Positions 1-62,732 of a stretch of DNA of 64,000 bases are shown one piece after another; within the stretch, counting starts at the first letter, position 1; each line of letters starts with the position of its first letter. Origin of the DNA: a virus (lineage: Duplodnaviria; Heunggongvirae; Uroviricota; Caudoviricetes; Demerecviridae); the IMG/VR virus record IMGVR_UViG_2974620381_000001, positions 48,928 through 112,927 of that record. One strand, 5' to 3'. A program made the translations under genes and the position numbers. A model generated the notes under the pieces. That model was not told the DNA's origin. It was given only the letters and a program-made list of their open reading frames with translations, and did no database searches.

Positions 1-1191
1 ATCTTTCTCTAACTGAACGACTTCTGGGTAAGTATACAGCTTTTCACGAGCTTTATTCAGATTATGAGTTAACTGGTACTGAGCTTCTTTTAAACGATCA
101 ATAGAAATAGGTACACCACGATCCTCAACACGTTGCAAGAATACGCAACCAGGCATCAAAACATCATAGTACAGACTGCAAAGTTTTTCATTCTTCTCAA
201 TTTTTGGTAAGAAGAAGTTGTGCAAACGTATGGTGGCATCTGTATCTTTCGCAGCGTAAGGCCACATAATATCAAACGGAATTAAATCATAGGTGAAATC
301 TTCTTTCTTGATTTTATGTGCTTTGCAGTAATCATCTTTGAACTTATCTAGTTCGAAGTCATAGTCACCCATATCGGTATACTTCATTGCTAGAGATTTC
401 AAGCCATGAGTACCACGACGTTCATCCAGAACATAATGCTGCAGCATAGTATCATGGAGCCTACGTTCTTTATGTGCTTTATCAAAAGTAAGTCCCAGAT
501 GGTACTTATAAAAGTGCATATCAAACTTCAGGTTGTGAAAAACAATAATGTGATTTTCACTATCCAGAATTTTCTGGAGATAATATACTGCAACCTCTGT
601 AAGACAATCAGAATCGATATATACACCCTGATACTCTTGGTGAGACATAGAAACACCGAGCAGATAACCATCTCGACAGTATAGTGCTGAGGTTTCGGAG
701 TCGAATGCGACAGGTCCGATAACCATATTATACACCATCTTGATATACTCTTCCGCCTCATCCGGGTCAGTAATAGGACGGTAATCACCAGCTTTTGCAA
801 TCTTCTCACGACCATTGATAATATCGTGGATATTCTCTACTGTTGCATCAAAAACTGGTTTCATTTCAGGCTTAAAGTGTAACTGGGCTGGGCTGATACT
901 CGCAATCCAGTTAGCATATCCATTATACTCTACACGTTTACCAGTATAGTCACCAATGCCTTTCTTACCTGCGAAATACAGGAAAGGTTCAGCACCTACT
1001 AGTATAACAAAATCATAATCATTCGGATCAAATGGGTTTTCTGGTGTTCCAATAGTAATGTGCTTTTTAAGCAAACGACCAGATAACTTCTCGTTACACA
1101 TATGGAATACATCAACTTCCTCGCCGTATAGCTGGAAATGTTTATCGTAACGAGTGTTATTTAGAGCTTTATCAACTACTGCGATTTTCAA
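1..1191 (-). CDS. DNA polymerase (family A), N-terminal 3'-5' exonuclease half; gene continues beyond window start
   Basis: Minus-strand reading frame open from 1191 to window edge; TTG start (complement 1189-1191) 7 nt after GAGGAG; translation MKIAVVDKALNN... contains DnaQ-like exo motifs FDSET, HNLKFD, YAAKDT typical of PolA 3'-5' exo domain. Confidence 0.85.
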   Translation of the reverse strand, partial: MKIAVVDKALNNTRYDKHFQLYGEEVDVFHMCNEKLSGRLLKKHITIGTPENPFDPNDYDFVILVGAEPFLYFAGKKGIGDYTGKRVEYNGYANWIASISPAQLHFKPEMKPVFDATVENIHDIINGREKIAKAGDYRPITDPDEAEEYIKMVYNMVIGPVAFDSETSALYCRDGYLLGVSMSHQEYQGVYIDSDCLTEVAVYYLQKILDSENHIIVFHNLKFDMHFYKYHLGLTFDKAHKERRLHDTMLQHYVLDERRGTHGLKSLAMKYTDMGDYDFELDKFKDDYCKAHKIKKEDFTYDLIPFDIMWPYAAKDTDATIRLHNFFLPKIEKNEKLCSLYYDVLMPGCVFLQRVEDRGVPISIDRLKEAQYQLTHNLNKAREKLYTYPEVVQLEKD

Positions 1192-1253
1192 ATTTAATCT
1201 CCTCTTGGTAAGTAAGTATAACTTCAGTGTTTCTTCTCTAACTTACCAATATA

Positions 1254-2144
1254 TTATACCAAATCTTTAAGCGATTCAGCAACTAAAATTTCAATACGTT
1301 TTGCTAACATATCAATTTCATCTTTGTTTAAATCACCTGGATCTTTGCCTTCAGGCAGGAGAAAGTTAGCAACTACAGGTGTTAAACGCGTTTTTGTACG
1401 AATTAGCTTAGCCAATGCTTGTGCAGCTTTATTACCAGAAGCATCATTATCTAGTAAGATAACAACAACTTTTACACCAGCAATAATATAAGGACTGAAC
1501 TTATCTGCAATGTTATCCGAAGTAAACTGATGTGTACCAAAGCAGCAAGAAGCATAGTCTATACCATTATCCTCTAGGTTCAGCATATCAAAGATACCTT
1601 CAACTAGAATAAGAACTGGAGTATTATATCGTACAGGGAAAATCGGTGGTGAAACTTGTTTTGGTTTTACTAAGTATTTAGGAGGGGCAGAACTGTTTAT
1701 AGAACGACCCAAAAATAGGATATTGCGTCCAACAGCATCTGTGATTGGGAATACAATTCTGCCTTCCCAGTCTGCTTGGTGTTGGAAAGCAAAATATTTC
1801 TTCAAGGTCTTAGAACTTATACCTCGGAAATCACCTTCGAAAAGGTAAGCAGATTCAGGAATTGCAAGATTCGTAGATCCATTCCTAATCTCTGAAATCT
1901 TTTTGCGTACTTGCGATAGCCTTGGGGACTGTCGGTACTGAGTCTCATTAAAATAATGGTAAATGCTCGGTATACCTTTACCGAAGCCACAACTCAAGCA
2001 GTGCATAATACCTGTTTCAGGATCAATACGCAAACTTGGGTGTTTATCGTCATGATCTGGATTGAGACAACAGATGAGGATGTCCCCACCTGTGTCTTTA
2101 TATTCAATGCCTTTCAGATCAAGTAGTTCTGTTATTCTACTCAT
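1254..2144 (-). CDS. DNA primase (DnaG-like: CHC2 zinc finger + TOPRIM)
   Basis: 296 aa; N-terminal CxxH...CLSCGFGKG zinc-binding motif; TOPRIM acidic motifs (VEGIFD, ILLDNDASG). Confidence 0.8.
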   Translation of the reverse strand: MSRITELLDLKGIEYKDTGGDILICCLNPDHDDKHPSLRIDPETGIMHCLSCGFGKGIPSIYHYFNETQYRQSPRLSQVRKKISEIRNGSTNLAIPESAYLFEGDFRGISSKTLKKYFAFQHQADWEGRIVFPITDAVGRNILFLGRSINSSAPPKYLVKPKQVSPPIFPVRYNTPVLILVEGIFDMLNLEDNGIDYASCCFGTHQFTSDNIADKFSPYIIAGVKVVVILLDNDASGNKAAQALAKLIRTKTRLTPVVANFLLPEGKDPGDLNKDEIDMLAKRIEILVAESLKDLV

Positions 2145-3613
2145 ATATCGCTGGCCTGTTCACCTGTTGAATTTTCAGTTTTGTCTTTCTTAGCACGTTT
2201 AGGTTGAGCCGGCTTATCCTTCTCAATAGGGATAACGAACTCAGCTTCCATTTGAGATATATCTTCCATTGCTAGGTTAGTTGTATTATCCATTCGCAGA
2301 GTTTCCCAGTTCATCTTAGGCATAAACTTCACGCTATCAGAAGAACGAGTCTTAACGAAGTCAAACATAATAGCACCTTGACCATTATCAGCTTTTGCAG
2401 CGTTAAGATTAGCAGCCATGTCAGCGGAATCAAGAATCCCCTTTGACATACGTGTTCTACCATCTTGATCGATCTGGTAAGGAGCTACACCAGCCACGTT
2501 ATGTTTCTGGCAGATAGATTTGAAAGACGAGCTAACAACCATCTGTTCTTTCCAGTCATACATATCAATGGTTTTAGAATCTGGAAGTCGGGTTTGGTTA
2601 ATATAGTCCAGTAAAGCTACTGTAACTTTATCACCATATCTAGCAACTAATTTATTTAATTCTACGTCAACTGTTGTAATGGACAGTTCAGGGTCATAAA
2701 CAATAATCATAGGAGTATGTAGCTCATACCCTTCTATTAGCTTACTTTCCATATCGTAGAAATCACTCATCTTAGCCATTGTGTACTGTTTAACAAAGTT
2801 ATCGAAAAGCTCTTCACCACCGTTAAACATCCTAGCTCTAGTTCTGGCTAATCTCAGCAGAGCTGCACCTTCTAGAGTATTATTACGCATTGCTAGTGCG
2901 GATACACCAGCTAACATGGCTAGATTACGTCTAAATACTTCATGTTCTTTCATCTCAATTGAGAAGTATGGAGCAATATCTCCATTCAAATATTGCTGAA
3001 CCTGTATGTTTGAACAGATAATGGATTTACCAGTACCACGCCAACCACCAAGCAGTAACGTTTCTGTGCGAGCTAAACCAATTTGAGCGTCGAACTCATT
3101 ACAAATACCAAGAGCGATTAAGTTCAGTTTGGTATCTTCTTCTCTCTGGAAAATACGCATGTTATCTGCGTTGAATACTTTTCCAGTATTCGTTACTTTC
3201 TCTTCTAATTTTAAGTGAAGGGAGGCAACTCGGTTGAGAATTTCTCCCTGATCCAGCATTGTTAAATCTTGAAGCACGTCTGTTTCTAGAAGCTTCAGGA
3301 ATAAATCCTGTGTATACTCGGCCTCTAGGACTTCAAGTGCCTGTTCCATGCTCACTTCTGGAATTTGAGTGTTAGCTAAGACGACTAGAGCTTGAGAAAG
3401 GCGGGCGTTCCTATTAGCTTCAAGCATAAGTGCGTCAATGGACGGCATTGTGTTATATTTTTTATAATAATTCTGGACGGCTTGGTAAATTGAGGAGAAA
3501 GCGTCATTAAAATGATCTTTATGCAGTTTTGAGAATGTTTCCAATGCTATTTGCTTCTGTTCGGAAGCTAGAAGCATCTTCAACACTACAGCTTGCACGT
3601 TAAACAAGGTCAT
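2141..3613 (-). CDS. replicative DNA helicase (DnaB-like)
   Basis: Walker A GGWRGTGKS; start moved to internal ATG (complement 3611-3613) preceded by AAGGAG; stop overlaps primase start (ATGA). Confidence 0.8.
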   Translation of the reverse strand: MTLFNVQAVVLKMLLASEQKQIALETFSKLHKDHFNDAFSSIYQAVQNYYKKYNTMPSIDALMLEANRNARLSQALVVLANTQIPEVSMEQALEVLEAEYTQDLFLKLLETDVLQDLTMLDQGEILNRVASLHLKLEEKVTNTGKVFNADNMRIFQREEDTKLNLIALGICNEFDAQIGLARTETLLLGGWRGTGKSIICSNIQVQQYLNGDIAPYFSIEMKEHEVFRRNLAMLAGVSALAMRNNTLEGAALLRLARTRARMFNGGEELFDNFVKQYTMAKMSDFYDMESKLIEGYELHTPMIIVYDPELSITTVDVELNKLVARYGDKVTVALLDYINQTRLPDSKTIDMYDWKEQMVVSSSFKSICQKHNVAGVAPYQIDQDGRTRMSKGILDSADMAANLNAAKADNGQGAIMFDFVKTRSSDSVKFMPKMNWETLRMDNTTNLAMEDISQMEAEFVIPIEKDKPAQPKRAKKDKTENSTGEQASDI

Positions 3614-3695
3614 TCTCCTTTGCACGCTTTCGTGCCTTCTAAATGCAAAAAGGGGAAGGAGCATAGCCCCCTCCCCTTAGGTTTAATTTACCAGA

Positions 3696-4463
3696 TTATT
3701 CAGCAGCCGCAGCTTTTGCATCCAGTTTAGCACGCTTAGCGGCACCATCATAGTCCTTAGCAACCAGACCACGACGAGACAGCATAGATTTAACACCGCG
3801 CTCAGATTTACCAGTTTTCTCAGCGATCTCAGCAACAGTCATGTTAACCAGATCCAGACCTTCTAACAGATCTTCACGAGTTTTAGCACTTGAGGTCTCC
3901 TGTACCGGCATAGCAGCGATACGACCTTCACGAAGCAGGCTCAGAGCTTTACCACGGATCTGCTTGATATTACGACCGAAGTGAGCAGCGATAGCTTCAA
4001 TAGTAGCACCAGCAACAACCTGATTAACAAAATCAGTTTCTTCATCCGGAGTGAAGGAACGAACAGCAGCAGCTTTTTCGGTTGGTTTAACAGAAGCGGT
4101 CATTTCCAGACTCAGGATCTTACCCTGTACCTGTTTAGCACCGAACTGACCACCAGCTACAGCAGCAGCGATTTCAGCATAGGTATACTGACCAGCATGA
4201 GCGTTTAGGAAATCAACCAGTTCAGCTTCCTGCTCAGGAGTCCACGGGGATTTCTGTACTTCGTTAGCTTTCTGTACTTCAAAACCTTCTTTACGCAGTT
4301 TAGAGCCAACAGAGCGAGCAGTAACATCTTTGCCAGTTTCAGCAGCCAGTTCAGCGGCGATAGCAGCTACTTGTTCTTGAGAGATTACAGAAACACCCAG
4401 AGCAGTGGCTTTTGCTTTCAGAGACTCGGTTACACCTTCTACGTTCCAGTTCAGTTTAGACAT
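3696..4463 (-). CDS. Ala-rich putative dsDNA-binding protein (possibly D5-like, ~29 kDa)
   Basis: 255 aa, three repeated K/R-rich helix-like motifs (SKLRKEGF, GKALSLLREG, KSMLSRRGL); size and position next to helicase/ligase fit T5 D5-type protein; function not provable from sequence. Confidence 0.45.
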   Translation of the reverse strand: MSKLNWNVEGVTESLKAKATALGVSVISQEQVAAIAAELAAETGKDVTARSVGSKLRKEGFEVQKANEVQKSPWTPEQEAELVDFLNAHAGQYTYAEIAAAVAGGQFGAKQVQGKILSLEMTASVKPTEKAAAVRSFTPDEETDFVNQVVAGATIEAIAAHFGRNIKQIRGKALSLLREGRIAAMPVQETSSAKTREDLLEGLDLVNMTVAEIAEKTGKSERGVKSMLSRRGLVAKDYDGAAKRAKLDAKAAAAE

Positions 4464-5238
4464 TATTATTTTTCTCCAATAGTTCTTTAATCGACAGGAT
4501 TTCTATCCCATTCGTTTCGGCTTTCTTATAAGATGAGGAAGAACGCTTCGATTCATCCTCACAGATTAGGTATTTGACGTCTTTGGTAACGGATTTCTTA
4601 ACCGTATATCCTAGACCTTCTAAATAGTTTGTTGCATCCGTTCGATTTGCAAAATCTTGCAAAGATCCGGTAATACATACCGCGATTCCATTTGGCTGGG
4701 CAACTAATTCATCTGTAATGATGACGTCAGCTTTAGTGCCCTTAATACCAGTTGAAAATTTCCACGGTAGTTCAATAACATCCTTGCCTTGTGGGGAATT
4801 TAGCCAGGCTTTGTAATTTTCTCCAGCCTTGCCGTCAGCCTTCACATTGTGAAAGCTAGTGCAATTTTGGGATAATTTCTTTGCTGCAACCTCTCCAATT
4901 AGAGGGATTCCTAAAGAACCGAGAACTGAACCAAAGTCAATGTCTCCGCGAACTTTAGTATTTAATTCGCTAATTAACTTAGCGGCAACCTTGCTACCCA
5001 CGGCTCTAACCAAATCTTCTTCGGTTAGGTAAAATAGTTCTGAAATCTTCGTCAGCTCCAGCTTCTCAATAGTTTTTGGGCCAAAGCCCTTTAACTTCAT
5101 TTTTGAACAGAAGTTCTCAATTAACTTACTTGATTGCGCTGGACAGTTGGACTTACTCCGACAGAATAATTGTCCGTTGACAAGATCTAGCTTAGAACCA
5201 CAAGAGGGACATTGTGTTGGAATTTCGATTTTCATCAA
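4456..5238 (-). CDS. NAD-dependent DNA ligase, subunit B (C4 zinc finger + HhH + BRCT-like C-terminal half)
   Basis: 260 aa; CPSCGSKL...C zinc finger, helix-hairpin-helix GFGPKTIEKL / LGIPLIG motifs; separate gene from adenylation half. Confidence 0.75.
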   Translation of the reverse strand: MMKIEIPTQCPSCGSKLDLVNGQLFCRSKSNCPAQSSKLIENFCSKMKLKGFGPKTIEKLELTKISELFYLTEEDLVRAVGSKVAAKLISELNTKVRGDIDFGSVLGSLGIPLIGEVAAKKLSQNCTSFHNVKADGKAGENYKAWLNSPQGKDVIELPWKFSTGIKGTKADVIITDELVAQPNGIAVCITGSLQDFANRTDATNYLEGLGYTVKKSVTKDVKYLICEDESKRSSSSYKKAETNGIEILSIKELLEKNNNV

Positions 5239-5265
5239 ATTTCTTCCTTATCAATTTATATAAAT

Positions 5266-5293
5266 ATTATAGCAAGTATTTAAGCATTTAGCA
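5266..5293 (-). promoter_or_regulatory. T5-type promoter (minus strand) for ligase subunit B, inside the gap between the two ligase genes
   Basis: Reverse complement reads TTGCTA-16-TATAAT. Confidence 0.55.
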
Positions 5294-5437
5294 ACTACAA
5301 TTTTAACTAACTTTGCTTACCCTCGCCATAACTTTCTATCCCTCAACTGAATGATAATAGTATATACCTAAGCGGCGAAAATGTCAATAACCACTTTATA
5401 ATTCCGATATGGTAGATGGGTAGCAAAGGGTTATGTA

Positions 5438-6409
5438 TTAATCGTATACTCGCTCTACTATACACGGGATTACACCACCAGCACGAATCACTCGAATCTG
5501 GCAACCGATCTCTAGATCAAGAGAGTTAATATAATCAACGTTATTAAGAGTCGCTTTAACAATTGTAGCATCATCAATAATTACCGGTTCGAAATAACCA
5601 ACTGGAGTTACTTTACCAGAAGCCCCTACCTGCCATTCAACTTTAGTAAGAGTTGTAATCTCGCCTTCTTCATCCTCTTTAATAGCGAATGCTCCACGAG
5701 GGAATTTATTAGTCCAGCCTTCCCGGAAGAATTTGTTGTTGTCATTAATACGAACAACTTTACCATCCGTCGGAATCCATTTAAAGAGGGAACGTACATT
5801 AACAACTGTTAAGAAGTTCTCATTCTCTAGCCAAAGCATATCTTTTAAATATGCTTCTGTAATACCTACAGATTCAGCAGAACACTGAATACCATATGCA
5901 ACGAAGATTAAACCACCTTCCCCGATACGCTGTACGAAATCATCACTATCTTTGAGGTTAATAGCACCAGAGGCAAAGTTACGTTTATTTTCTACTTCTT
6001 TTGTAATTAGAACTTCACCAGTGATTTGAGTAGGTACTTTTTGGGAAATCTTTTTAGGGATATTCAGCAATCTTACGTTGCTTGTGACATCATTCCCTAG
6101 AATACCATTACCACGAGTTAGTGCTTGAACAAATTCTCCATTAATATATAACAGAGAAATCGCACAACCATCTAACTTATCAGTTTCTACCTGACCTAAT
6201 GGGTTAAATGGAGGTTTATCCCCACGATTATAATAAACTTTCTGTAAAGAATACATACGATACAGATGTGGAATATCACCCCTAGGCCCGATCTCTTCTT
6301 CTAACGGAAATCTTTTAATCAGACGATCATATTCTTCGTCAGAGATTAAAGACATTCCCTGGTAATATGCTTCTTGGCAACGTTTAATAAAGTCTTTTAC
6401 ATTAGTCAT
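5438..6409 (-). CDS. NAD-dependent DNA ligase, subunit A (adenylation/OB half)
   Basis: 323 aa; KxDG adenylation motif (DKLDGCAIS), NAD-ligase N-terminal Ia-like region (CQEAYYQG). Confidence 0.75.
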   Translation of the reverse strand: MTNVKDFIKRCQEAYYQGMSLISDEEYDRLIKRFPLEEEIGPRGDIPHLYRMYSLQKVYYNRGDKPPFNPLGQVETDKLDGCAISLLYINGEFVQALTRGNGILGNDVTSNVRLLNIPKKISQKVPTQITGEVLITKEVENKRNFASGAINLKDSDDFVQRIGEGGLIFVAYGIQCSAESVGITEAYLKDMLWLENENFLTVVNVRSLFKWIPTDGKVVRINDNNKFFREGWTNKFPRGAFAIKEDEEGEITTLTKVEWQVGASGKVTPVGYFEPVIIDDATIVKATLNNVDYINSLDLEIGCQIRVIRAGGVIPCIVERVYD

Positions 6410-6424
6410 TTATTTATATCTCTC

Positions 6425-6470
6425 ATTAATTTATATAAATATTATATAACAAAACTGAGTTGAAAGCAAA
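6425..6470 (-). promoter_or_regulatory. T5-type promoter (minus strand) for ligase subunit A
   Basis: Reverse complement reads TTTGCTTTCAACTCAGTTTTGTTATATAATATTTAT. Confidence 0.5.
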
Positions 6471-6496
6471 TACATTTATAAAGAAAAAGCCAAGAA

Positions 6497-6805
6497 CTAG
6501 GCATTCTTGGCTTTGAGTTCTTCAGCTCGTTTCTGTACTTCATGTAAAACCTCAGATTCACTAAGAATCTGTGTAAACGCGTAGAAAAGCTGTGATGTTG
6601 TTTCTAGGGTGTAAGGAAAAGAGAAGCCAGATTTCGTTGGAAACCATTCATCATTAATATCAAGAAGCCAGTAACGAATACCCATGTATAGATTCCCACG
6701 AAATTCAGATACTGTTAATCTTACTTGTTCTCCCTCCTTCTCCCAAAGTATGATGGACTGGTCATCAACGTGTCCTTCATAGTTTTGATTTACCTGTTCG
6801 CTCAT
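6497..6805 (-). CDS. hypothetical protein
   Basis: 102-aa ORF in minus-strand gene array. Confidence 0.45.
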   Translation of the reverse strand: MSEQVNQNYEGHVDDQSIILWEKEGEQVRLTVSEFRGNLYMGIRYWLLDINDEWFPTKSGFSFPYTLETTSQLFYAFTQILSESEVLHEVQKRAEELKAKNA

Positions 6806-6855
6806 TTACATATCCCAAATACACAAAAAGCCCCATATAGGGGCTAATTGGTTTC

Positions 6856-7152
6856 TTATCGGCCTACTGGAGAAGCACGATCTAACTCTGATTGGAGGCT
6901 AGTCACACGACGGACTTTCTCAACAGGAATAAAACGGAAGCTATCATTAGTACGAGAGAAGACAAGGATCTCATCATCTTTCGCTTTACGAATACGTTCA
7001 CGTTTAATACGCTCAGCCAGATATTTATCTTGGGCTGGATCAAATTCCATTGTACCCTGAAGGTACGTGGTTCCTTTCTGACGAAGTTTCTCGTAATGAA
7101 GATAAAACTCACCAAATTTTTCGCACTGTGCAATAATTTCAGCTTTAGTCAT
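6856..7152 (-). CDS. hypothetical protein
   Basis: 98-aa ORF; co-oriented with neighbours. Confidence 0.45.
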   Translation of the reverse strand: MTKAEIIAQCEKFGEFYLHYEKLRQKGTTYLQGTMEFDPAQDKYLAERIKRERIRKAKDDEILVFSRTNDSFRFIPVEKVRRVTSLQSELDRASPVGR

Positions 7153-7189
7153 AGCTATAGTTCCTTTTGTTGGTGGATTTATCTAAATA

Positions 7190-7600
7190 TTACTTAGTAA
7201 TAGCTCGGATTGCTTCTGCCAGATGAGCAGCCGCTTTACCGGTCAGTTTGTCGATAATTGCATCATCCAGAAAATCTGGTGCTAAGCCAGCGTCAGAGAA
7301 TGCTGCGCGAAGGTCGGCATGGGCTTGAGCTTTGGAGGTACGAGAACCACCAGAAGCTTTTTCTCCAGTAGATGCGCTAGATTTAGAAGTAGAACCAGCA
7401 GCTTTCTTAATATACAAACCTGCTTTAGTCAGCTTCATACGAAAACCGTTCGGAGTTACACCGTTTTTCTGGGCAATTTCGCTAACAATTTCCATGCTAA
7501 CACCCGGACGTTCATCCTCTGGGAATTGCTCCATACGAGCAACGTATTCGGAAGACATTTTTTCGAACAGTTCATCAGTCCACTGAGTTGGAGTAGTCAT
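7190..7600 (-). CDS. hypothetical protein (S/A-rich linker)
   Basis: 136-aa ORF; T5-type promoter on minus strand at ~7625-7665. Confidence 0.5.
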   Translation of the reverse strand: MTTPTQWTDELFEKMSSEYVARMEQFPEDERPGVSMEIVSEIAQKNGVTPNGFRMKLTKAGLYIKKAAGSTSKSSASTGEKASGGSRTSKAQAHADLRAAFSDAGLAPDFLDDAIIDKLTGKAAAHLAEAIRAITK

Positions 7601-7703
7601 ATTTTATATTTCCTTAATTAAGAATTAAACAGAATAGTTCTTTCAAACTATGAGAATATTATATCAAGAATTGTAGGATTAAGCAACTGAAATTTTTAAG
7701 TAG

Positions 7704-7979
7704 TTACTCCACCAGGCCAACAGCGAGCATATCCTCGATGCTGGCAATCTCCCAATCATCTGCAATAGCTTCGCATACTGTTAATGAAACAACCTCGCTA
7801 TATGGATAGTTACCGGCTACCCAGGTATGCTGAGTAGCTACATCCGAGTCAGCATCTAAAGTTAGTAACACTAAGCCGTTATTATCGTTATCCCAGCTTC
7901 TACGATATAGTGTTTTTACTTCCCCATCTTTAAGTAAATCAGTTAGTCTACTCACGGCGTTTTCCTTTTTCTTTATCAA
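7704..7979 (-). CDS. hypothetical protein
   Basis: 91-aa ORF, overlaps upstream gene by 32 nt. Confidence 0.4.
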   Translation of the reverse strand: MIKKKENAVSRLTDLLKDGEVKTLYRRSWDNDNNGLVLLTLDADSDVATQHTWVAGNYPYSEVVSLTVCEAIADDWEIASIEDMLAVGLVE

Positions 7980-8652
7980 GTTTCAAGGCAGCCTTAACAG
8001 CTTCGTTAATCAACGTAATAACTTCTTCACGAGTCCACTTATACCCTAGAGATTTTACATCAACCCCTAGCTTTTCCAGATGTTTAACAGAAGCCAACTC
8101 ATAATTCATATAATGAACGTTCTGTTGTTTGCCTTCTGATAGAAGCCATACACGGTAACAACCAACAGGGTTATCCATTGCTTTTTTGATTTCACCGATA
8201 CACTGGTATCCAGGAACCCAAACAAGCTCACCTACCTCAAATTCTTCTGCTACAGCATCATCAGGAATAATTGGTGGGTTCAATGGGTCTACAATATCGT
8301 TCAAACGAAGCAGAGCACCATAGCGTTCCAGAACAGATTTAACCATTGCTACAGAGCGGTAATTACGATCGGCAATCTCTTCAAAAGAATCACCAGATAG
8401 ATACTGCTCAATAACGTTGGCTAACTCAATGCCTTCAATGAGTGTGCCACGTTTCTTTTTCTTCATTTCGGCAACTTGAATCTGGCGGTCTTGCCATTCT
8501 TCAATCATCCTTTCCATAGTTGGGTTGGATGATACCCCGAGCATTTCACATGCTGCTTTCTTAGTACCACCGTTCTCCAGATGCTCTATAACCTTTTTAA
8601 AGACTTCATCAGGGATTTCATGGATATGTTTCTTTCTGCGAGAACCAGCCAT
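7948..8652 (-). CDS. HTH DNA-binding protein (putative transcription regulator)
   Basis: 234 aa; N-terminal helix-turn-helix GGTKKAACEMLGVSSNPTMERMIEEW. Confidence 0.5.
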   Translation of the reverse strand: MAGSRRKKHIHEIPDEVFKKVIEHLENGGTKKAACEMLGVSSNPTMERMIEEWQDRQIQVAEMKKKKRGTLIEGIELANVIEQYLSGDSFEEIADRNYRSVAMVKSVLERYGALLRLNDIVDPLNPPIIPDDAVAEEFEVGELVWVPGYQCIGEIKKAMDNPVGCYRVWLLSEGKQQNVHYMNYELASVKHLEKLGVDVKSLGYKWTREEVITLINEAVKAALKLDKEKGKRRE

Positions 8653-8659
8653 ATTTAAA

Positions 8660-8715
8660 CTCCTCTCTCAAATTTATGAATCTATTATACAGAAAAATTT
8701 TCCTGAAAGCAAATA
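8660..8715 (-). promoter_or_regulatory. T5-type promoter (minus strand)
   Basis: Reverse complement reads TTTGCTTTCAGGAAAATTTTTCTGTATAATAGATTC. Confidence 0.5.
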
Positions 8716-8720
8716 AATTT

Positions 8721-8963
8721 TTACGATTCCTTGAGCAAAGAAGCAAGTTCAGCATAGACTTTATCTAACTCAAAGCCGATGCGAAGAGACACGTTTGTTT
8801 TCCGTTGTTTAAGTAACCACTCGGATATGTTAGGGATGCCAGCTAATCTGTGTGGTACCACCCTACATAGCTTTTCCGAAGTGTCGTAAACAGGAATTTT
8901 ACGTTCTTTTACTGGAAACTTCCTTGTTTCCCATTTTTTATTCTTCACTGTCATTTCTAGCAC
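8721..8963 (-). CDS. hypothetical protein
   Basis: 80-aa ORF. Confidence 0.4.
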   Translation of the reverse strand: MLEMTVKNKKWETRKFPVKERKIPVYDTSEKLCRVVPHRLAGIPNISEWLLKQRKTNVSLRIGFELDKVYAELASLLKES

Positions 8964-11592
8964 CTAGCTCTGACATTGCTTCATCATGCATATGTTTTTC
9001 CTCGTCAGTCATGAACTTATAAGGAATTGGCATACACTCGATTTTACAATAGGTTCTGTACCAGTCTACAATATTTTCAGTGTTCATATCCTTACCAATA
9101 CCCATCATACCAAGATACATTCTAGCATATTTTGGGTTAGCACTCTGACCTGTTTTAAGGAAGAAGTCTTTCTTCTTACCTTTCAGAGCCTCTATGAATG
9201 GTTTAATGGTCACATTTGAACACTTCTTAATATCTTCCCAGAACATCTCGTGCATTTTATGGAAGAATGCAGCTCGATCATTCGGTTTATCCTTAATATA
9301 CTGTTCAACATGCTCAACTGTTACATCTTTAATAGACTCAAGATGATAATAACGAACAAGAAGTAGTTTAGCTTCATACGCATCCGCATGACGTGGAGCA
9401 CAATAATCCGGAGTTGAATGTAGAATAGCTTTAATTCGCTCTTCTGTGTACTCTTTACCAGCACCTTCAATAGTTCCCCAGCTTTCGCTGAAAATATCAA
9501 TAGTTGCACCCTGATCAAGCAAGTAATAACGTAAAGTACTAGTATAGTTTCTAGATTCCAACTCTCTACGACGTGCGTATAATTGCTGTGCTAACTCCAG
9601 CCAACCTTCATCAATATTATATTGTTCAGAACCTGCGGAGAATCCACTAGTGGATTTATCAATAAAATAATAGATATTTTGAGCACCACGGTCGCGCCTG
9701 ATTGCTTGGAAACGCATGTTTGGCGCTTGATTACTGGTTCTAGTAATAACAAATACATTATCGAAATAGTTAAAGTCAACACCACTCGTTACGGATGGGC
9801 TACATAATAAGCAATCAATTTGTTGATCAATTAGCTCATTAGTTGTATAATCCAGAATACGTCGAATATCCACATCTGAGGTAGAGTTTGAATGGATTTC
9901 CTTAACTAACGCACCCGTATTACGACGCAGTGCCATACCCTTCTCATTCAGCTCATCAGGACCACAATCAGATACTAGAATAGATTTCTCACCCATCTCT
10001 AGAGAAGTCTGAAGTGCAACCCAAATACTGGATTCATCAGGGAACTCATAAGCATGAGCTTTTGACAGCATCTTACGATGATGATTATAAAATGCGACAG
10101 GTTTATCAAACTCAATCAAAGAACCATATGCTTCAATTGTTTCTGCACTAATATCACCATCAGATAATATAATTATTTTCGCAGTTGCAAGAATATCCCG
10201 AAGAACCTGAATACATTCGCGACGTTGCTTAACAACCGGGGCGAATAATAGGTCATTCATTACTGCATCACATTCATCGATAAAGATTGCATCAATTTGA
10301 CCAATAAAACTCTTGAATTTATGCAAAGAGTGAATAGTTGTGGACATACGGTCAATAGCACCGCGCTTAAAATTAAGCATATCTACAGACTTATCATATT
10401 GTCCTGCACTAAATTTCTTAGCATTTGAAGATACCAGTGCTCGAGTATTGGTAATTGCTAAGAAATTACCCTTAATAACTCCCGAATCTAACCAACGCAC
10501 AACCGCCGTAGTTTTACCTGTACCTAGACTTGCTTTTACAAAAGTCATATAACCTTCTGGTGGTACAGTATTTAATTTCAAGAAGTTATCAGTCTCTAGA
10601 GAGTTAGTTTCTAGCTTTTTAAGTGGAATACCTTTTAAAACATCCGGTATATCACGTTTAGAATTATTAACAAACGCTTTCAGAGCCTGCTTACGACCGT
10701 TGTTAAAGTAGTCTTGAATATTACGACTATTATCTTTAGTTGCAATATACTCTGATAAGGCTGGGCGGATTTCTTTTTCTAGCCATGCAAAATCAACACC
10801 ATCCTCTAAAGCCCTGTGATAGAGTTTAGGAATAATACGTAGATACACTCCATCCTCAGCTTCTTCTAGTTCGCTGATAGTTTCCTCTACTTTATCAGAG
10901 GCAGCCTTTTTACCTTTAATTTGATCGAGTAAGGAGTAAAATTCCTCTTTAAACTCTCCTCTAGTTGTTTCATAGTCAACTAGATTATTAGGTAAATTTA
11001 CCTTCGAACCTTTAACAAATACCAGACGTGAAGCACCCTCCGCCTTAAACGGATCGACTATACCATCAGTAAATAAAGGATCAGCAAAGTAATGGAGCTG
11101 TACGGAAGAGTAATAAGCTAAGTCGGCAATATCAAAGCCATACTTTTGTCTACTACTTTCGTTGATAGATGTAAATAAGAACTTGATTTGACCCTGAGTT
11201 ACTTTAACATTAGATTCTAGTATTAAGTGCATTCGGATACCTGGTTTTAGGCCAGCCGAAGATGATGCATGAGCGATAAACCCTGCATCAAGAGGAAACA
11301 TATCCTCACTAATACTATTTAACATTCTAATAATATGTCGAGCCATGCCAACAAGATCAAACTTGTTACAACCACCTGTATCTACAATACCATCCACGTC
11401 CATTGCAATTATATGACTTGGGTTAGATACATTAAAGTTGCCCTTCTTACGTCGCACATTATTTTTAGGTGCAAGACATCGACCTCGTACCGCAACGATA
11501 TGAGGGTCAGACGTTAAACGTCTCATAAGAGGGAGCATTTCTACTAGGGTTTGAGGATCAACTTCATCAATTACATCAAACTTGAAGGGCAT
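8938..11592 (-). CDS. SF2 helicase with N-terminal primase-polymerase-like region; putative replication origin-binding protein
   Basis: Walker A SLGTGKTTAV, Walker B/DExx FIDECD, N-terminal AMDVDG acidic motif; in-frame ORF extends upstream to 11925 but first ~110 codons atypical, so start set at MPFKFDV (complement 11590-11592). Confidence 0.6.
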   Translation of the reverse strand: MPFKFDVIDEVDPQTLVEMLPLMRRLTSDPHIVAVRGRCLAPKNNVRRKKGNFNVSNPSHIIAMDVDGIVDTGGCNKFDLVGMARHIIRMLNSISEDMFPLDAGFIAHASSSAGLKPGIRMHLILESNVKVTQGQIKFLFTSINESSRQKYGFDIADLAYYSSVQLHYFADPLFTDGIVDPFKAEGASRLVFVKGSKVNLPNNLVDYETTRGEFKEEFYSLLDQIKGKKAASDKVEETISELEEAEDGVYLRIIPKLYHRALEDGVDFAWLEKEIRPALSEYIATKDNSRNIQDYFNNGRKQALKAFVNNSKRDIPDVLKGIPLKKLETNSLETDNFLKLNTVPPEGYMTFVKASLGTGKTTAVVRWLDSGVIKGNFLAITNTRALVSSNAKKFSAGQYDKSVDMLNFKRGAIDRMSTTIHSLHKFKSFIGQIDAIFIDECDAVMNDLLFAPVVKQRRECIQVLRDILATAKIIILSDGDISAETIEAYGSLIEFDKPVAFYNHHRKMLSKAHAYEFPDESSIWVALQTSLEMGEKSILVSDCGPDELNEKGMALRRNTGALVKEIHSNSTSDVDIRRILDYTTNELIDQQIDCLLCSPSVTSGVDFNYFDNVFVITRTSNQAPNMRFQAIRRDRGAQNIYYFIDKSTSGFSAGSEQYNIDEGWLELAQQLYARRRELESRNYTSTLRYYLLDQGATIDIFSESWGTIEGAGKEYTEERIKAILHSTPDYCAPRHADAYEAKLLLVRYYHLESIKDVTVEHVEQYIKDKPNDRAAFFHKMHEMFWEDIKKCSNVTIKPFIEALKGKKKDFFLKTGQSANPKYARMYLGMMGIGKDMNTENIVDWYRTYCKIECMPIPYKFMTDEEKHMHDEAMSELGARNDSEE

Positions 11593-53989: not shown

Positions 53990-54579
53990 TGAAGGTTAAA
54001 TTCTGGTCAGACTTGCACTTAGACCACCCTGGAGCACTACGTTTCCGTCCGTGGTTTAAGAACATGAAAGAGCACGATGAGTATATTCTAGATACTTTGT
54101 CCAAGCATATTGGTAAACGAACAAAACTTATTTTGCTAGGAGATATTGCAGTAGGTCGTGAAGGTCTGGCCAAATTAAAGTCGGTTATCCACAATGTCCC
54201 TAATCAACTCATTATGGGTAATCATGATGCGGAGCGTCAAGGACTGAGTATTAAGGACTTAGCGGAAGTTTATGATGATATTCAGGCTCTAGGTAGACAG
54301 ACTGGAGGTGGCAAAAAGTTTTGGCTATCTCACTGCCCTTTGCATCCCAATGAACTTCGTGGTAAACTAAATATTCACGGACACGTACATACTACTTCTT
54401 TACGTGATCCACGTTATATTAATGTCTCATTTGAAATGAGTAAAACTCCAATTCCGCTAGAGGATATTGTGTCTGGTAAGTTTACTAGCTATGATAGGGT
54501 AGTTAATTGTACTACCGGCGAGGTATTACAAATAGGAGAAGACGTAGCTGCTGTATTACGTGGTGATATAAATGTCTAA
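53989..54579 (+). CDS. metallophosphoesterase
   Basis: 196 aa; D.H, GDIAVGREG, GNHD, GHVH motifs. Confidence 0.6.
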   Translation: MKVKFWSDLHLDHPGALRFRPWFKNMKEHDEYILDTLSKHIGKRTKLILLGDIAVGREGLAKLKSVIHNVPNQLIMGNHDAERQGLSIKDLAEVYDDIQALGRQTGGGKKFWLSHCPLHPNELRGKLNIHGHVHTTSLRDPRYINVSFEMSKTPIPLEDIVSGKFTSYDRVVNCTTGEVLQIGEDVAAVLRGDINV

Positions 54580-59936: not shown

Positions 59937-60646
59937 TTAAAGAAGCCGAAAAATTAAAACGTCTCATTCAGTTAGCGCGTGGTGCTACACAAAAGAGCCT
60001 TTCTCAGCTAACTGATGAAGAAAAATATGCAGTAATGTTTTTAGGAGATCATTATCCTGCTAAGTGGGATAAAGGTAAGATCAAATATGATCGTGATGCA
60101 AAACGAGTAGTTTGGTCAGGCTCATATGTGGAGGTGAATAAAGCGTTGAAAGCTTTAGATCCTGAAGCAAAGGGTTTCTCTTCTAATGCTATTCATATTC
60201 TAATCGATGAAGATCTCCCAAGATTTAAGGAAGCATCATTTAAAGAAGCATTAGCTAGCGAAGATCTTATCCCTTTCAAACATGGCAAATATGCCCACCT
60301 TCCTCCACTAGAAAAAGAGAAACCAACTCTAGTTAAAGATGAAGTTTATCGTGGGATTGGCACGATGTTAGCGAGTTTGACTGTAGCTCTCCATAAAGAT
60401 CTAGAGTTAACGCCCTTAGAAAATGCTGTGCATTTCATGTGTCATAAATACGAAGATACATTTAAAGAGCTATGTAAGTCGCTAGGAATGCCAAGTTACA
60501 CGATATTAAACTACGCTCCTGAGTATACTAGAGCAGCTCGCGGAACTATGGATTACGATGATACAGGATCCACTGCTTCCTATTTAGCAACTTATATCTA
60601 CTTCGCATCCTTAGGTATCAAACTCAAATCCAAGAAGGAGGAATAA
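59933..60646 (+). CDS. hypothetical protein
   Basis: 237-aa ORF; last gene before the 1.7-kb repeat region. Confidence 0.5.
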   Translation: MIKEAEKLKRLIQLARGATQKSLSQLTDEEKYAVMFLGDHYPAKWDKGKIKYDRDAKRVVWSGSYVEVNKALKALDPEAKGFSSNAIHILIDEDLPRFKEASFKEALASEDLIPFKHGKYAHLPPLEKEKPTLVKDEVYRGIGTMLASLTVALHKDLELTPLENAVHFMCHKYEDTFKELCKSLGMPSYTILNYAPEYTRAARGTMDYDDTGSTASYLATYIYFASLGIKLKSKKEE

Positions 60647-60696
60647 AAGTTAACAAAAAGTTCTTGCATTCTCATACCCAAACATGTTATAATAAT

Positions 60697-60866
60697 CTCA
60701 TAGATTAACAACTACTCTAGTTGATTAACTCTAGGGGCGATGATTATTACACGAATGTCTCGTATAGCTTGCGGCCTAGCAACAGCGGTATGACGGCATG
60801 AGTACTCACGTAATTAATCACGCGCCCCCAGGAGAGACTCTCATGAAATTGGGGGTCTCTTTTTCT
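60697..60866 (+). ncRNA. candidate small RNA (promoter-to-terminator unit, ~170 nt, no ORF)
   Basis: Promoter TTGCAT-18-TATAAT (60664-60693); downstream GC hairpin (CCCCCAGGAGAGAC...GGGGGTCTCT) plus TTTTTCTTTAT at 60815-60866. Confidence 0.4.
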
Positions 60867-61020
60867 TTATATTATTTAAATATTTTTAATGGCAATATCT
60901 GTGTTCAAGATGATACACCTGTTGCCGTTCATCTGCTAGGATGGCACAACACTTTCTTCTAGACTCCTAAGTTTCTAGGAATAGTTGAGCACAAATTCTA
61001 GAGATCACACTAAAATATTC

Positions 61021-61757
61021 ATCGGATTTGCACATATTCTAGGGCAGTTTTCTTCTCATATTATATTCTTTAGGCCGGTTTTCCTATATAGGGCGGTTTT
61101 AGGGAGGGCGGTTATTTCTAGAAGACATTTTTCGAAAACACATTTCCAGAAATTACTGTCGGATTTGCACACTGATATTCTAGAAATTTATGGTCGGATT
61201 TGCACAAACGCCTAAGTTTTTAGGAACTCTTACTCTCCTGAAAATAGCAGCATTATTTCGGGCCGAAGGCCCATGATTGCCTGAGTTTTTAGAGCCACAG
61301 AAATTTTCACTTGTCAAGCTATTTTGCCCCATTTTGCTAATAAAATTTTACTTTATCTGCACCTATCCCAAATCTTCCCAAATTATCTCAACTCTTCCCC
61401 AAAATCCCCGCAAATCAGGTGCTCCGCACCAAACATGCGCCCCATCCTTCTAGCCCCCAAATTTCTCTCGCTCTCTCATCTTCTCCTCAAACCCACACAA
61501 TCACACACCCTCCAATCGAAGTCACAAAAATCTTGTCGGATTCGCACAAATAAACTCATGTCGGATCTGCTCATACTCTAGCTAATTCCACAGGATTGAT
61601 GCGCAGCATCGGATTGCTGGAGTTTTTAGGAAAATTCATTGTCGGATTTGCACACTATAAAAATTTTTCGGGTCGGATTTGCACACTACCAAAAATTGTC
61701 GGATTCGCACATACATGCCCGCACGTAACACCCGTGGAGCAATGTCGGATTTGCACA
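61021..61757. repeat. nine dispersed 14-bp iterons GTCGGATTTGCACA (two with 1-2 mismatches)
   Basis: Copies at 61021, 61158, 61193, 61535, 61560 (degenerate), 61641, 61672, 61698, 61744; all same orientation. Confidence 0.8.
61360..61530 (+). other. G-poor polypyrimidine (C/T/A) tract of ~170 nt
   Basis: Plus strand contains almost no G between 61360 and 61530 (ccc/ctc/tcc runs). Confidence 0.7.
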
Positions 61758-61789
61758 AAAGCGCAGGGCAATTGCCCTGCGCTAAATAC

Positions 61790-61990
61790 GAATGATAATA
61801 AGAATCATTCTCATTTAAAAAGCGGAATGAGAATGATAATAATTCGCATTTAGAAAGTGAAATGAGAATCAATCTCATTTAAGAAAGGGAATGAGAACTA
61901 TTCAAAAAGTGAAATGATTATCGGTTAGATAGTGGAATGTGAATGATAATAATTCGCATCTAAGAATGGAAGTGAGAAACACTGTTATTT
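61790..61990. repeat. array of GRAATGAGAA(T) repeats with internal palindromes
   Basis: At least six copies (cGGAATGAGAATg, tGAAATGAGAATc, gGGAATGAGAACt, tGAAATGATTATc, tGGAATGTGAATg, GGAAGTGAGAAAc); perfect palindrome AAATGAGAAT-c-ATTCTCATTT at 62298-62318. Confidence 0.7.
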
Positions 61991-61993
61991 AAG

Positions 61994-62086
61994 TTATCCA
62001 CAGACTTATCAACAGCACGATTTGATTTGACAGAATCCTAGCCATTTTGAAGCGTTATTAACAGACTTATCCACAGCTTATCCTAC
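61994..62086 (+). promoter_or_regulatory. DnaA-box cluster (2 perfect TTATCCACA + 3 one-mismatch variants) embedded in 18-bp direct repeat ACAGACTTATC[CA]ACAGC
   Basis: TTATCCACA at 61994-62002 and 62067-62075; TTATCAACA 62007-62015; TTATTAACA ~62055; TTATCCTAC 62078-62086. Confidence 0.65.
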
Positions 62087-62359
62087 TGTATAAATATACA
62101 GTATTCCTATGCAGTGAATAATTCTAATATACCGCTAAAACGTCCTGAATCGCATTCTAACGCGTTTAATTTTGGTGGGGATACTAAAACAAGGGCAAAA
62201 TTGGAGGAGGCTTAAAAATTAGTTAGCCCGCTAACGATCACACAAGGCGACACGTAACACCCTAATCATTAGCAGGCTAACCATCGCGAGCGCGGTCAAA
62301 TGAGAATCATTCTCATTTGAGAATTGGGGGCACTCCCTGGTAGTTGCGCCCCGTGATTA

Positions 62360-62554
62360 TTAGTCTGGTAGTCGATGCGTGATTTTTTCCTCCTCCCCGT
62401 AGGAATCCACCAAATGCTGATAATAACCATCGTGATCATAAATCACTTTATCATACTCGCCACGCTCGACCGCTTGCCGGTTTTCCGGCGTATCGGGCAC
62501 ATAAAAAACGTCAACCATTGTGGTAGTTTTGGTTACAACAATTTTATTGCTCAT
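62360..62554 (-). CDS. hypothetical protein
   Basis: 64-aa ORF, first gene after the repeat region, opposite orientation to early genes. Confidence 0.4.
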   Translation of the reverse strand: MSNKIVVTKTTTMVDVFYVPDTPENRQAVERGEYDKVIYDHDGYYQHLVDSYGEEEKITHRLPD

Positions 62555-62570
62555 AATAACCCCCGTTATT

Positions 62571-62732
62571 AATTATTTGCGTAAATATACGCTTGCCAAT
62601 AGTCCAGCTAGAAAGCCCGCCGGTACACCAAATGAAGCCACACCGGGAACACTAGCACCATGAGCATATAAAGCCCAGCAAATTACATAAGGCAACAACG
62701 GAAACATGCCAGCTATTAAAAACTTTTTCATT
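62571..62732 (-). CDS. small membrane peptide
   Basis: 53-aa hydrophobic ORF with GGTGG SD. Confidence 0.3.

Follow-up and report, generated by a model that had tools for sequence, protein, structure and literature searches.

The DNA analysed here is a stretch of 64,000 nucleotides (the window), whose segment 61000-62400 is 100% identical to Phage NBSal005 (MN994504.1), a T5-like Salmonella phage of the genus Tequintavirus with a genome of 121,040 bp. Window positions (w) are converted to record positions as w + 48,927. Positions 1-10,822 of the record are identical to positions 110,219-121,040, which reveals a direct terminal repeat of 10,822 bp. Its inner boundary was placed at window position 61292 from this repeat identity, and it maps to the end of the left terminal repeat of T5 (AY587007, position 10139). 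The NBSal005 record is oriented opposite to the T5 reference, the repeat copy contained in the window is the counterpart of the T5 left terminal repeat, and DNA enters the cell from right to left in window coordinates. The DnaA-box module described below is located 702 bp inward of the boundary, within the terminal repeat that is first to enter the cell. Between 61879 and 62113 no ORF of at least 30 aa was found on either strand. A small pre-early ORF of 64 aa (62360-62554, minus strand, from the ORF calls) is the last member of the operon that terminates shortly ahead of the module. The presence of an RNA gene at the module was rejected because an Rfam scan of 60600-62600 yielded only matches at chance level. 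Close to the boundary, a strongly C-rich, strand-asymmetric tract with a GC skew down to -0.65 occupies positions 61300-61599, directly inside 61292. Repeated short GGGCGGTT-type motifs, also present in Klebsiella phage Sugarland, are found just outside the terminal repeat at 61040-61115, around the place where T5 has its direct repeat A.

The whole module extends over 61971-62101 on the plus strand and is the reverse-complement ortholog of the T5 segment IRD'-spacer-IRC' (AY587007 9332-9462). Its conserved left edge (61971-61993, plus strand) consists of the imperfect palindrome AGTGAGAAACACT (61971-61983) followed by GTTATTTAAG, with identities between the primary and the secondary copy of the module of 0.79 and 0.97, respectively. 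Four 9-mers were located downstream by motif scan, all on the plus strand: box 1 (61994-62002) and box 4 (62067-62075) are both TTATCCACA, the perfect DnaA-box consensus, box 2 (62006-62014) is TTATCAACA, with one mismatch (C6 to A), and box 3 (62055-62063) is TTATTAACA, with two mismatches to the strict consensus and one to TTWTNCACA. When the relaxed consensus TT(A/T)TNCACA is applied, boxes 2 and 3 each deviate by a single base, at C6. The boxes are thus arranged as two tandem pairs (starts at 61994/62006 and 62055/62067), each in a 12-bp register with a gap of 3 bp within the pair. The pair starts are 61 bp apart, and the pairs are separated by a spacer of fixed length (40 bp, 62015-62054, plus strand, from the alignment of 38 elements) that holds a conserved TTGACA at 62027-62032 and can vary freely in its right half. 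The second pair is followed by a 20-bp palindrome, TACTGTATAAATATACAGTA (62084-62103), which corresponds to T5 palindrome D (AY587007 9330-9349).

The original prediction of two perfect TTATCCACA boxes in this region was borne out, as was the common orientation of the cluster, since every TTATC/TTATT-type 9-mer faces the same way. The three further boxes that it described as one-mismatch variants carry in fact one (TTATCAACA at 62006), two (TTATTAACA at 62055) and three mismatches (TTATCCTAC at 62078). The last of these (62078-62086, plus strand), counted as a fifth box, corresponds to a TTATCC half-box, conserved with an identity of 0.88 between primary and secondary copies, and its end reaches into the left arm of the palindrome TACTGTATAAATATACAGTA. 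The duplication of an 18-mer proved real as a duplication, its length being 17 nucleotides: the repeated units are ACAGACTTATC(A/C)ACAGC at 62000-62016 and 62061-62077. Taken as a 24-mer (repeat family D7), the duplicated segments 61993-62016 and 62054-62077 are 88% identical. The T5-type lytic phage, with host-type DnaA boxes and neighbouring repeats, had also been recognised correctly from the sequence, the window being part of the T5-like NBSal005.

A chance origin of the cluster was rejected on the basis of 2000 first-order Markov simulations of the window. Three perfect boxes were observed in the 64 kb against 0.66 expected; two perfect boxes on the same strand within 95 bp never occurred in the 2000 simulations, and three or more matches with at most one mismatch within 95 bp occurred in 0.2% of them. 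The third perfect TTATCCACA is isolated (54185-54193), far from the module, and is compatible with chance, about 0.66 being expected per window. The 64 kb of the window, genome centre included, contained no other cluster of DnaA boxes.

Comparison with T5 has revealed what this element is. Across 160 nt, the module is 92.5% identical to the T5 contig L078, and its coordinates were mapped without gaps onto T5 strain ATCC 11303-B5 (AY587007) in an alignment of 131 bp. The two copies of T5 direct repeat B (B1, 9357-9379, and B2, 9418-9440 in AY587007) are the two box pairs, and the T5 region 9140-10149 is annotated in NC_005859 as "injection stop signal (iss)". T5 major nick 1 (7.9%; AY587007 9661-9668) falls at window positions 61761-61768, with the module just preceding it on the entered side, and the approximate T5 shear point maps to about 61809, so that the module is located 160-290 bp to the already-entered side. 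With near certainty, the cluster can be identified as the NBSal005 version of the known DnaA-box module in the injection-stop-signal region of T5. In both phages it occupies the same position, some 700 bp from the inner end of the terminal repeat, with box pairs separated by 3-bp gaps, the same spacer length and the same adjoining palindrome. In contrast, NBSal005 has two perfect boxes and T5 only one, since box 4 is TTATCCACA in NBSal005 and TTATCCCCA in T5; box 3 is TTATTAACA in the former and TTATCAACA in the latter. The terminal repeats are 10,822 bp and 10,139 bp long, respectively, and the two database records have opposite orientations.

The discovery of the DnaA boxes in T5 reportedly goes back to an article by Heusterspreute and colleagues in Gene in 1987. 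According to Davison (2020, bioRxiv 10.1101/866236), the boxes of this element were reported in 1987; the same author compared 25 T5-like phages, described box pairs 3 bp apart with a constant spacer, counted eight boxes in each first-step region, since the element is present a second time in inverted orientation, and proposed that membrane-bound DnaA binds the boxes and stops the first-step transfer. The module and its DnaA boxes are therefore already known, and the stalling of DNA transfer suggested in the original prediction is a published hypothesis, because the boxes, the spacer and the stop model were all described by Davison in 2020. Later papers restate this DnaA model and call it experimentally untested, and searches of the accessible literature yielded neither binding nor genetic experiments on the boxes.

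As in T5, where a second inverted copy (IRC-spacer-IRD) is found further inside the terminal repeat, NBSal005 carries a second module on the opposite strand, 81% identical to the first and outside the window (record MN994504.1 114828-114958; L001 8902-9032). This copy is found a further 3.9 kb into the repeat and is flanked by divergent genes (record 114562-115125). The two inverted modules bracket a variable operon of small genes (011-017-like), with their LexA-type ends (see below) facing inward. The orientation and content of the genes in the cassette between the modules vary among related phages. Such an arrangement might be read as a device for recombination, circularisation or processing of the terminal repeats, for example by pairing the left and right repeats or by marking a cleavage site. 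The four copies of the module per virion DNA, the variability of the cassette and the proposal of A1/A2 cleavage near palindromes (Davison, bioRxiv 10.1101/866236) would agree with this, but the terminal-repeat boundary is 700 bp away, no sequence feature links the boxes to cleavage and no experimental support was found in the searched literature, so that this explanation appears very improbable.

The conservation of the element was assessed in T5-like loci collected by an exact iteron match 250-1000 bp from the boxes, without selecting on the boxes themselves; this sampling replaced the use of the flanking 237-aa protein as query, which had retrieved two loci only. Altogether, 542 phage records contain the element, and the sample comprised 22 distinct primary and 16 distinct secondary (inverted) elements, 38 in total. 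The distance from the start of box 1 to the end of box 4 was exactly 82 bp, with no indels, in all 38. Box 1 was perfect in 20 of the 22 primary and 12 of the 16 secondary copies. Box 2 was TTATCAACA or TTATTAACA in every primary copy, the C6-to-A change being present throughout, and TTATCCACA in 8 of the 16 secondary ones. At the position of box 3 other phages have TTATCCACA, TTATCAACA, TTTTCAACA, TTTTACACA or TTTTGCACA, and box 4 is TTATCCACA or TTATCCCCA in most relatives. The identity between paralogous copies was 0.96 in box 1, 0.89 in box 4 and 0.94 in the gap between boxes 3 and 4, and it was 0.33 in the gap between boxes 1 and 2, 0.67 and 0.41 in the left and right halves of the spacer, and 0.36 in the flanks. 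A profile of the 152 boxes was close to TT(A/T)TNCACA with additional tolerance at position 6: T1, T2, T4, C8 and A9 were essentially invariant, position 3 held either A or T, and variation was seen at positions 5 and 6. The relaxed consensus itself is matched by 86 of the 152 boxes across relatives and by two of the four in the NBSal005 module. The alignments show the boxes and their spacing to be under purifying selection throughout the family.

The palindrome TACTGTATAAATATACAGTA matches the LexA/SOS consensus TACTGTATATATATACAGTA at 19 of 20 positions, is unique in the window and has an expectation of 0 by chance. It has the form CTGT-N8-ACAG with an AT-rich centre, near the 20-bp LexA/SOS consensus, and its heterology index, calculated with a matrix entered by hand, is about 1.2, which places it among the strongest SOS boxes of E. 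coli. After the boxes, the arrangement CTGTAT-N4-ATACAG is found in every T5-like copy and in most of the Proteus, Vibrio, Aeromonas, Klebsiella and Pectobacterium relatives. Palindrome D shares the CTGTAT/ATACAG arms and a variable centre with the LexA/SOS operators of Gammaproteobacteria (e.g. umuDC, recN, dinD). Unlike them, it does not demonstrably overlap a promoter and is found beside DnaA boxes in a strictly lytic phage. It is thus regarded as a near-perfect candidate LexA/SOS box, conserved family-wide and possibly new: LexA, SOS and Fur are not mentioned in the text of Davison (bioRxiv 10.1101/866236), and the LexA- or Fur-type identity of these sites is unreported in the searchable literature, which does not extend to older subscription papers.

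The combined promoter and terminator scan detected no promoter-like site inside the primary module at the threshold used, and one weak antisense promoter-like site (62095-62122) was found to overlap the palindrome. RNA polymerase can be stopped by complexes formed on DnaA boxes, and both LexA and Fur are textbook repressors. The modules could be regulatory or insulating elements, with DnaA, LexA and perhaps Fur modulating the pre-early small-gene operon or blocking read-through instead of acting on DNA entry. The 011-017-like operon does lie between the inverted modules, whose LexA-type ends point inward, and the second copy is placed between divergent genes near the predicted pre-early promoters T5P3 and T5P4. 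However, the annotated T5 promoters are about 90 and 180 bp from the second copy without overlapping it, a terminator is predicted ahead of the primary copy, and the primary module has nothing nearby except the weak antisense site. Moreover, the operon is dispensable, yet the module is the best-conserved DNA of the area. A purely transcriptional role is accordingly considered quite unlikely.

Distant relatives were gathered by fetches anchored on A1. In distant Demerecviridae (Proteus, Aeromonas and two Vibrio phages, with A1 proteins 32-42% identical), 2-6 perfect TTATCCACA boxes were counted per 18-26 kb, with about 0.2-0.3 expected, and three phages with DNA-level matches only (Pectobacterium DU_PP_V, Klebsiella Sugarland and Vibrio SJ1) had 2-3 perfect boxes per 10 kb. 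With few exceptions, the boxes of these relatives were located within or close to the equivalent non-coding DNA. The Vibrio phage iterons are unlike those of T5. An argument from helical phasing in distant phages (about 51 versus 61 bp between boxes) was dropped, since the correspondence of the boxes is ambiguous.

These relatives bear on the nature of the ligand. The 9-mers and the palindrome could be sites for a phage protein (the dimeric A2, an A1/A2 complex or a DNA-holding virion protein), the likeness to DnaA and LexA sites being incidental or the result of mimicry. Both A1 and A2 are needed for the second-step transfer, A2 is a DNA-binding dimer, homologs of A1 and A2 accompany the module throughout the family, the strictly fixed spacing suggests a single defined complex, and half of the boxes deviate from the DnaA consensus. 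The A2 protein gave no Pfam or PDB sequence match, and its PHROGs label, "DNA binding protein" only, is uninformative on a DnaA- or LexA-like domain. Against a phage ligand, TTATCCACA and CTGTAT-N4-ATACAG remain exact in relatives where A1 is only 32-42% identical and the other repeats have changed, and an accidental match to two unrelated host consensus sequences is very unlikely. Retention of the universal host consensus by a motif, against a background of drifting phage-specific repeats, would favour a host ligand, and binding of a phage protein as the primary explanation is therefore judged unlikely.

The side of the module facing the rest of the genome is rich in further repeats. An AT-rich array of Fur-box-like repeats and palindromes (61793-61958), corresponding to T5 DRC and palE to palI, was recognised by motif scan and T5 mapping, and the approximate T5 shear point falls within it. 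The Fur 7-1-7 motif TGATAATNATTATCA (up to three mismatches) has six matches in this array and two more at 62301 and 62418, so that eight of the 18 matches in the whole window fall within 61793-62432. Fur-box-like sequences, AATGAGAATCATTCTCATT and GATAATAAGAATCATTCTC among them, are present as repeats and palindromes at 61793-61958, 62296-62320 and 62418-62432. Comparable Fur-like arrays were observed in Klebsiella, Pectobacterium and Vibrio relatives, one Vibrio relative carrying AAATGATAATCATTCTCATT. The putative Fur-type repeats flanking the module are possibly new. Next to the array, at 61760-61783, is a perfect 12+12 GC-rich palindrome, AGCGCAGGGCAATTGCCCTGCGCT (inverted repeat I9, T5 palindrome J), which is the site of the annotated T5 "major nick 1, 7.9%", the same fraction as the first-step DNA. 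It is followed by nine iteron-like repeats GTCGGATTTGCACA (family D1, T5 DRD; 61013-61759, plus strand, in the same orientation as the boxes), which span the terminal-repeat boundary at 61292. The iteron core ATTTGCACA is one base off the relaxed DnaA consensus, and the equivalent iteron in a Pectobacterium phage contains TTTTGCACA, which satisfies it.

Four DnaA boxes beside a tract of 29.5% GC and nine GTCGGATTTGCACA repeats resemble the layout of a plasmid origin, and the locus could accordingly be conceived as a DnaA-dependent, iteron-type replication origin. In the iteron plasmid origins P1 oriR, pSC101 and F oriS, DnaA boxes are likewise found beside direct repeats and an AT-rich tract. 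Unlike these origins, the module has no known cognate initiator gene for the iterons, its second copy lacks adjacent iterons, and the T5 origins are elsewhere. With the chromosomal DnaA-box clusters of E. coli the module shares several close boxes in one orientation, with consensus and weaker variants together. In contrast to oriC-type clusters, it has no 13-mer unwinding element and no GATC cluster, its register is 12 bp instead of the 11 bp of oriC arrays, it is placed in a phage terminal repeat, and nothing in it points to unwinding or to control of the nucleotide state of DnaA. As for an unwinding element at the module, only the AT-rich Fur-like array was seen. The 9-mer consensus, as given by Davison, is common to the module and to the oriC R boxes, datA and DARS. 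The literature cited by Davison (bioRxiv 10.1101/866236) places the T5 origins near the genome centre by electron microscopy and indicates that the replication genes arrive only with the second-step DNA, and no DnaA cluster was detected at the genome centre within the window. The role in replication initiation that the original prediction offered as one possibility is thus unsupported; an origin at this locus is very unlikely and was the weakest of the rival readings.

The best explanation of the locus, held with a probability of roughly 0.55, is that host DnaA, and perhaps LexA, would be bound to the first-step DNA at this DnaA-box module of the T5 injection-stop region. As the final portion of the first-step DNA emerges, its four boxes would be occupied by host DnaA, a protein present in abundance at the inner membrane, and the neighbouring palindrome may be occupied by LexA; the module would then act as a platform for host DnaA that helps to hold or pause the incoming DNA. 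Taken on its own, binding of host DnaA to the boxes is probable. A role of the module in the transfer pause is a more tentative suggestion, somewhat less likely than not; it fits the position of the module, which is on the entered side of both the shear point (about 61809) and nick 1.

Several points stand against the DnaA explanation. Half of the boxes are off the accepted consensus, and proteins bound to DNA that has already entered have no obvious way to halt further entry. The relevant site could instead be the first major nick, which is also at the 7.9% point. With FhuA proteoliposomes, ejection in vitro runs to completion (Davison, bioRxiv 10.1101/866236), which indicates only that some cell factor is needed. 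T5 deleted for hegG to 017 is viable; this block presumably contains the second, inverted module, so that the two-copy "knot" model would not be essential.

An extended form of the DnaA explanation would be a composite landing pad, in which four DnaA boxes, a near-perfect LexA box and the Fur-like arrays, present family-wide at the border between first- and second-step DNA, allow host proteins or the state of the host to set the pause or the release. LexA, for example, might be lost after the A1-driven breakdown of the host DNA. This broader proposal is speculative and rather unlikely to hold as a whole.

The stop of T5 after 8% of its DNA has entered, and the subsequent restart, have been unexplained for about 60 years. 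The identification of the NBSal005 module itself adds no new fact on this pause, and the box module is the best-conserved candidate stop site; the family-wide conservation data and the LexA-type palindrome narrow down which sites should be mutated first. If DnaA, perhaps together with LexA, does hold the DNA, the universal replication initiator would double as a gate for virus entry, and the pause could be manipulated in many T5-like phages used for biocontrol.
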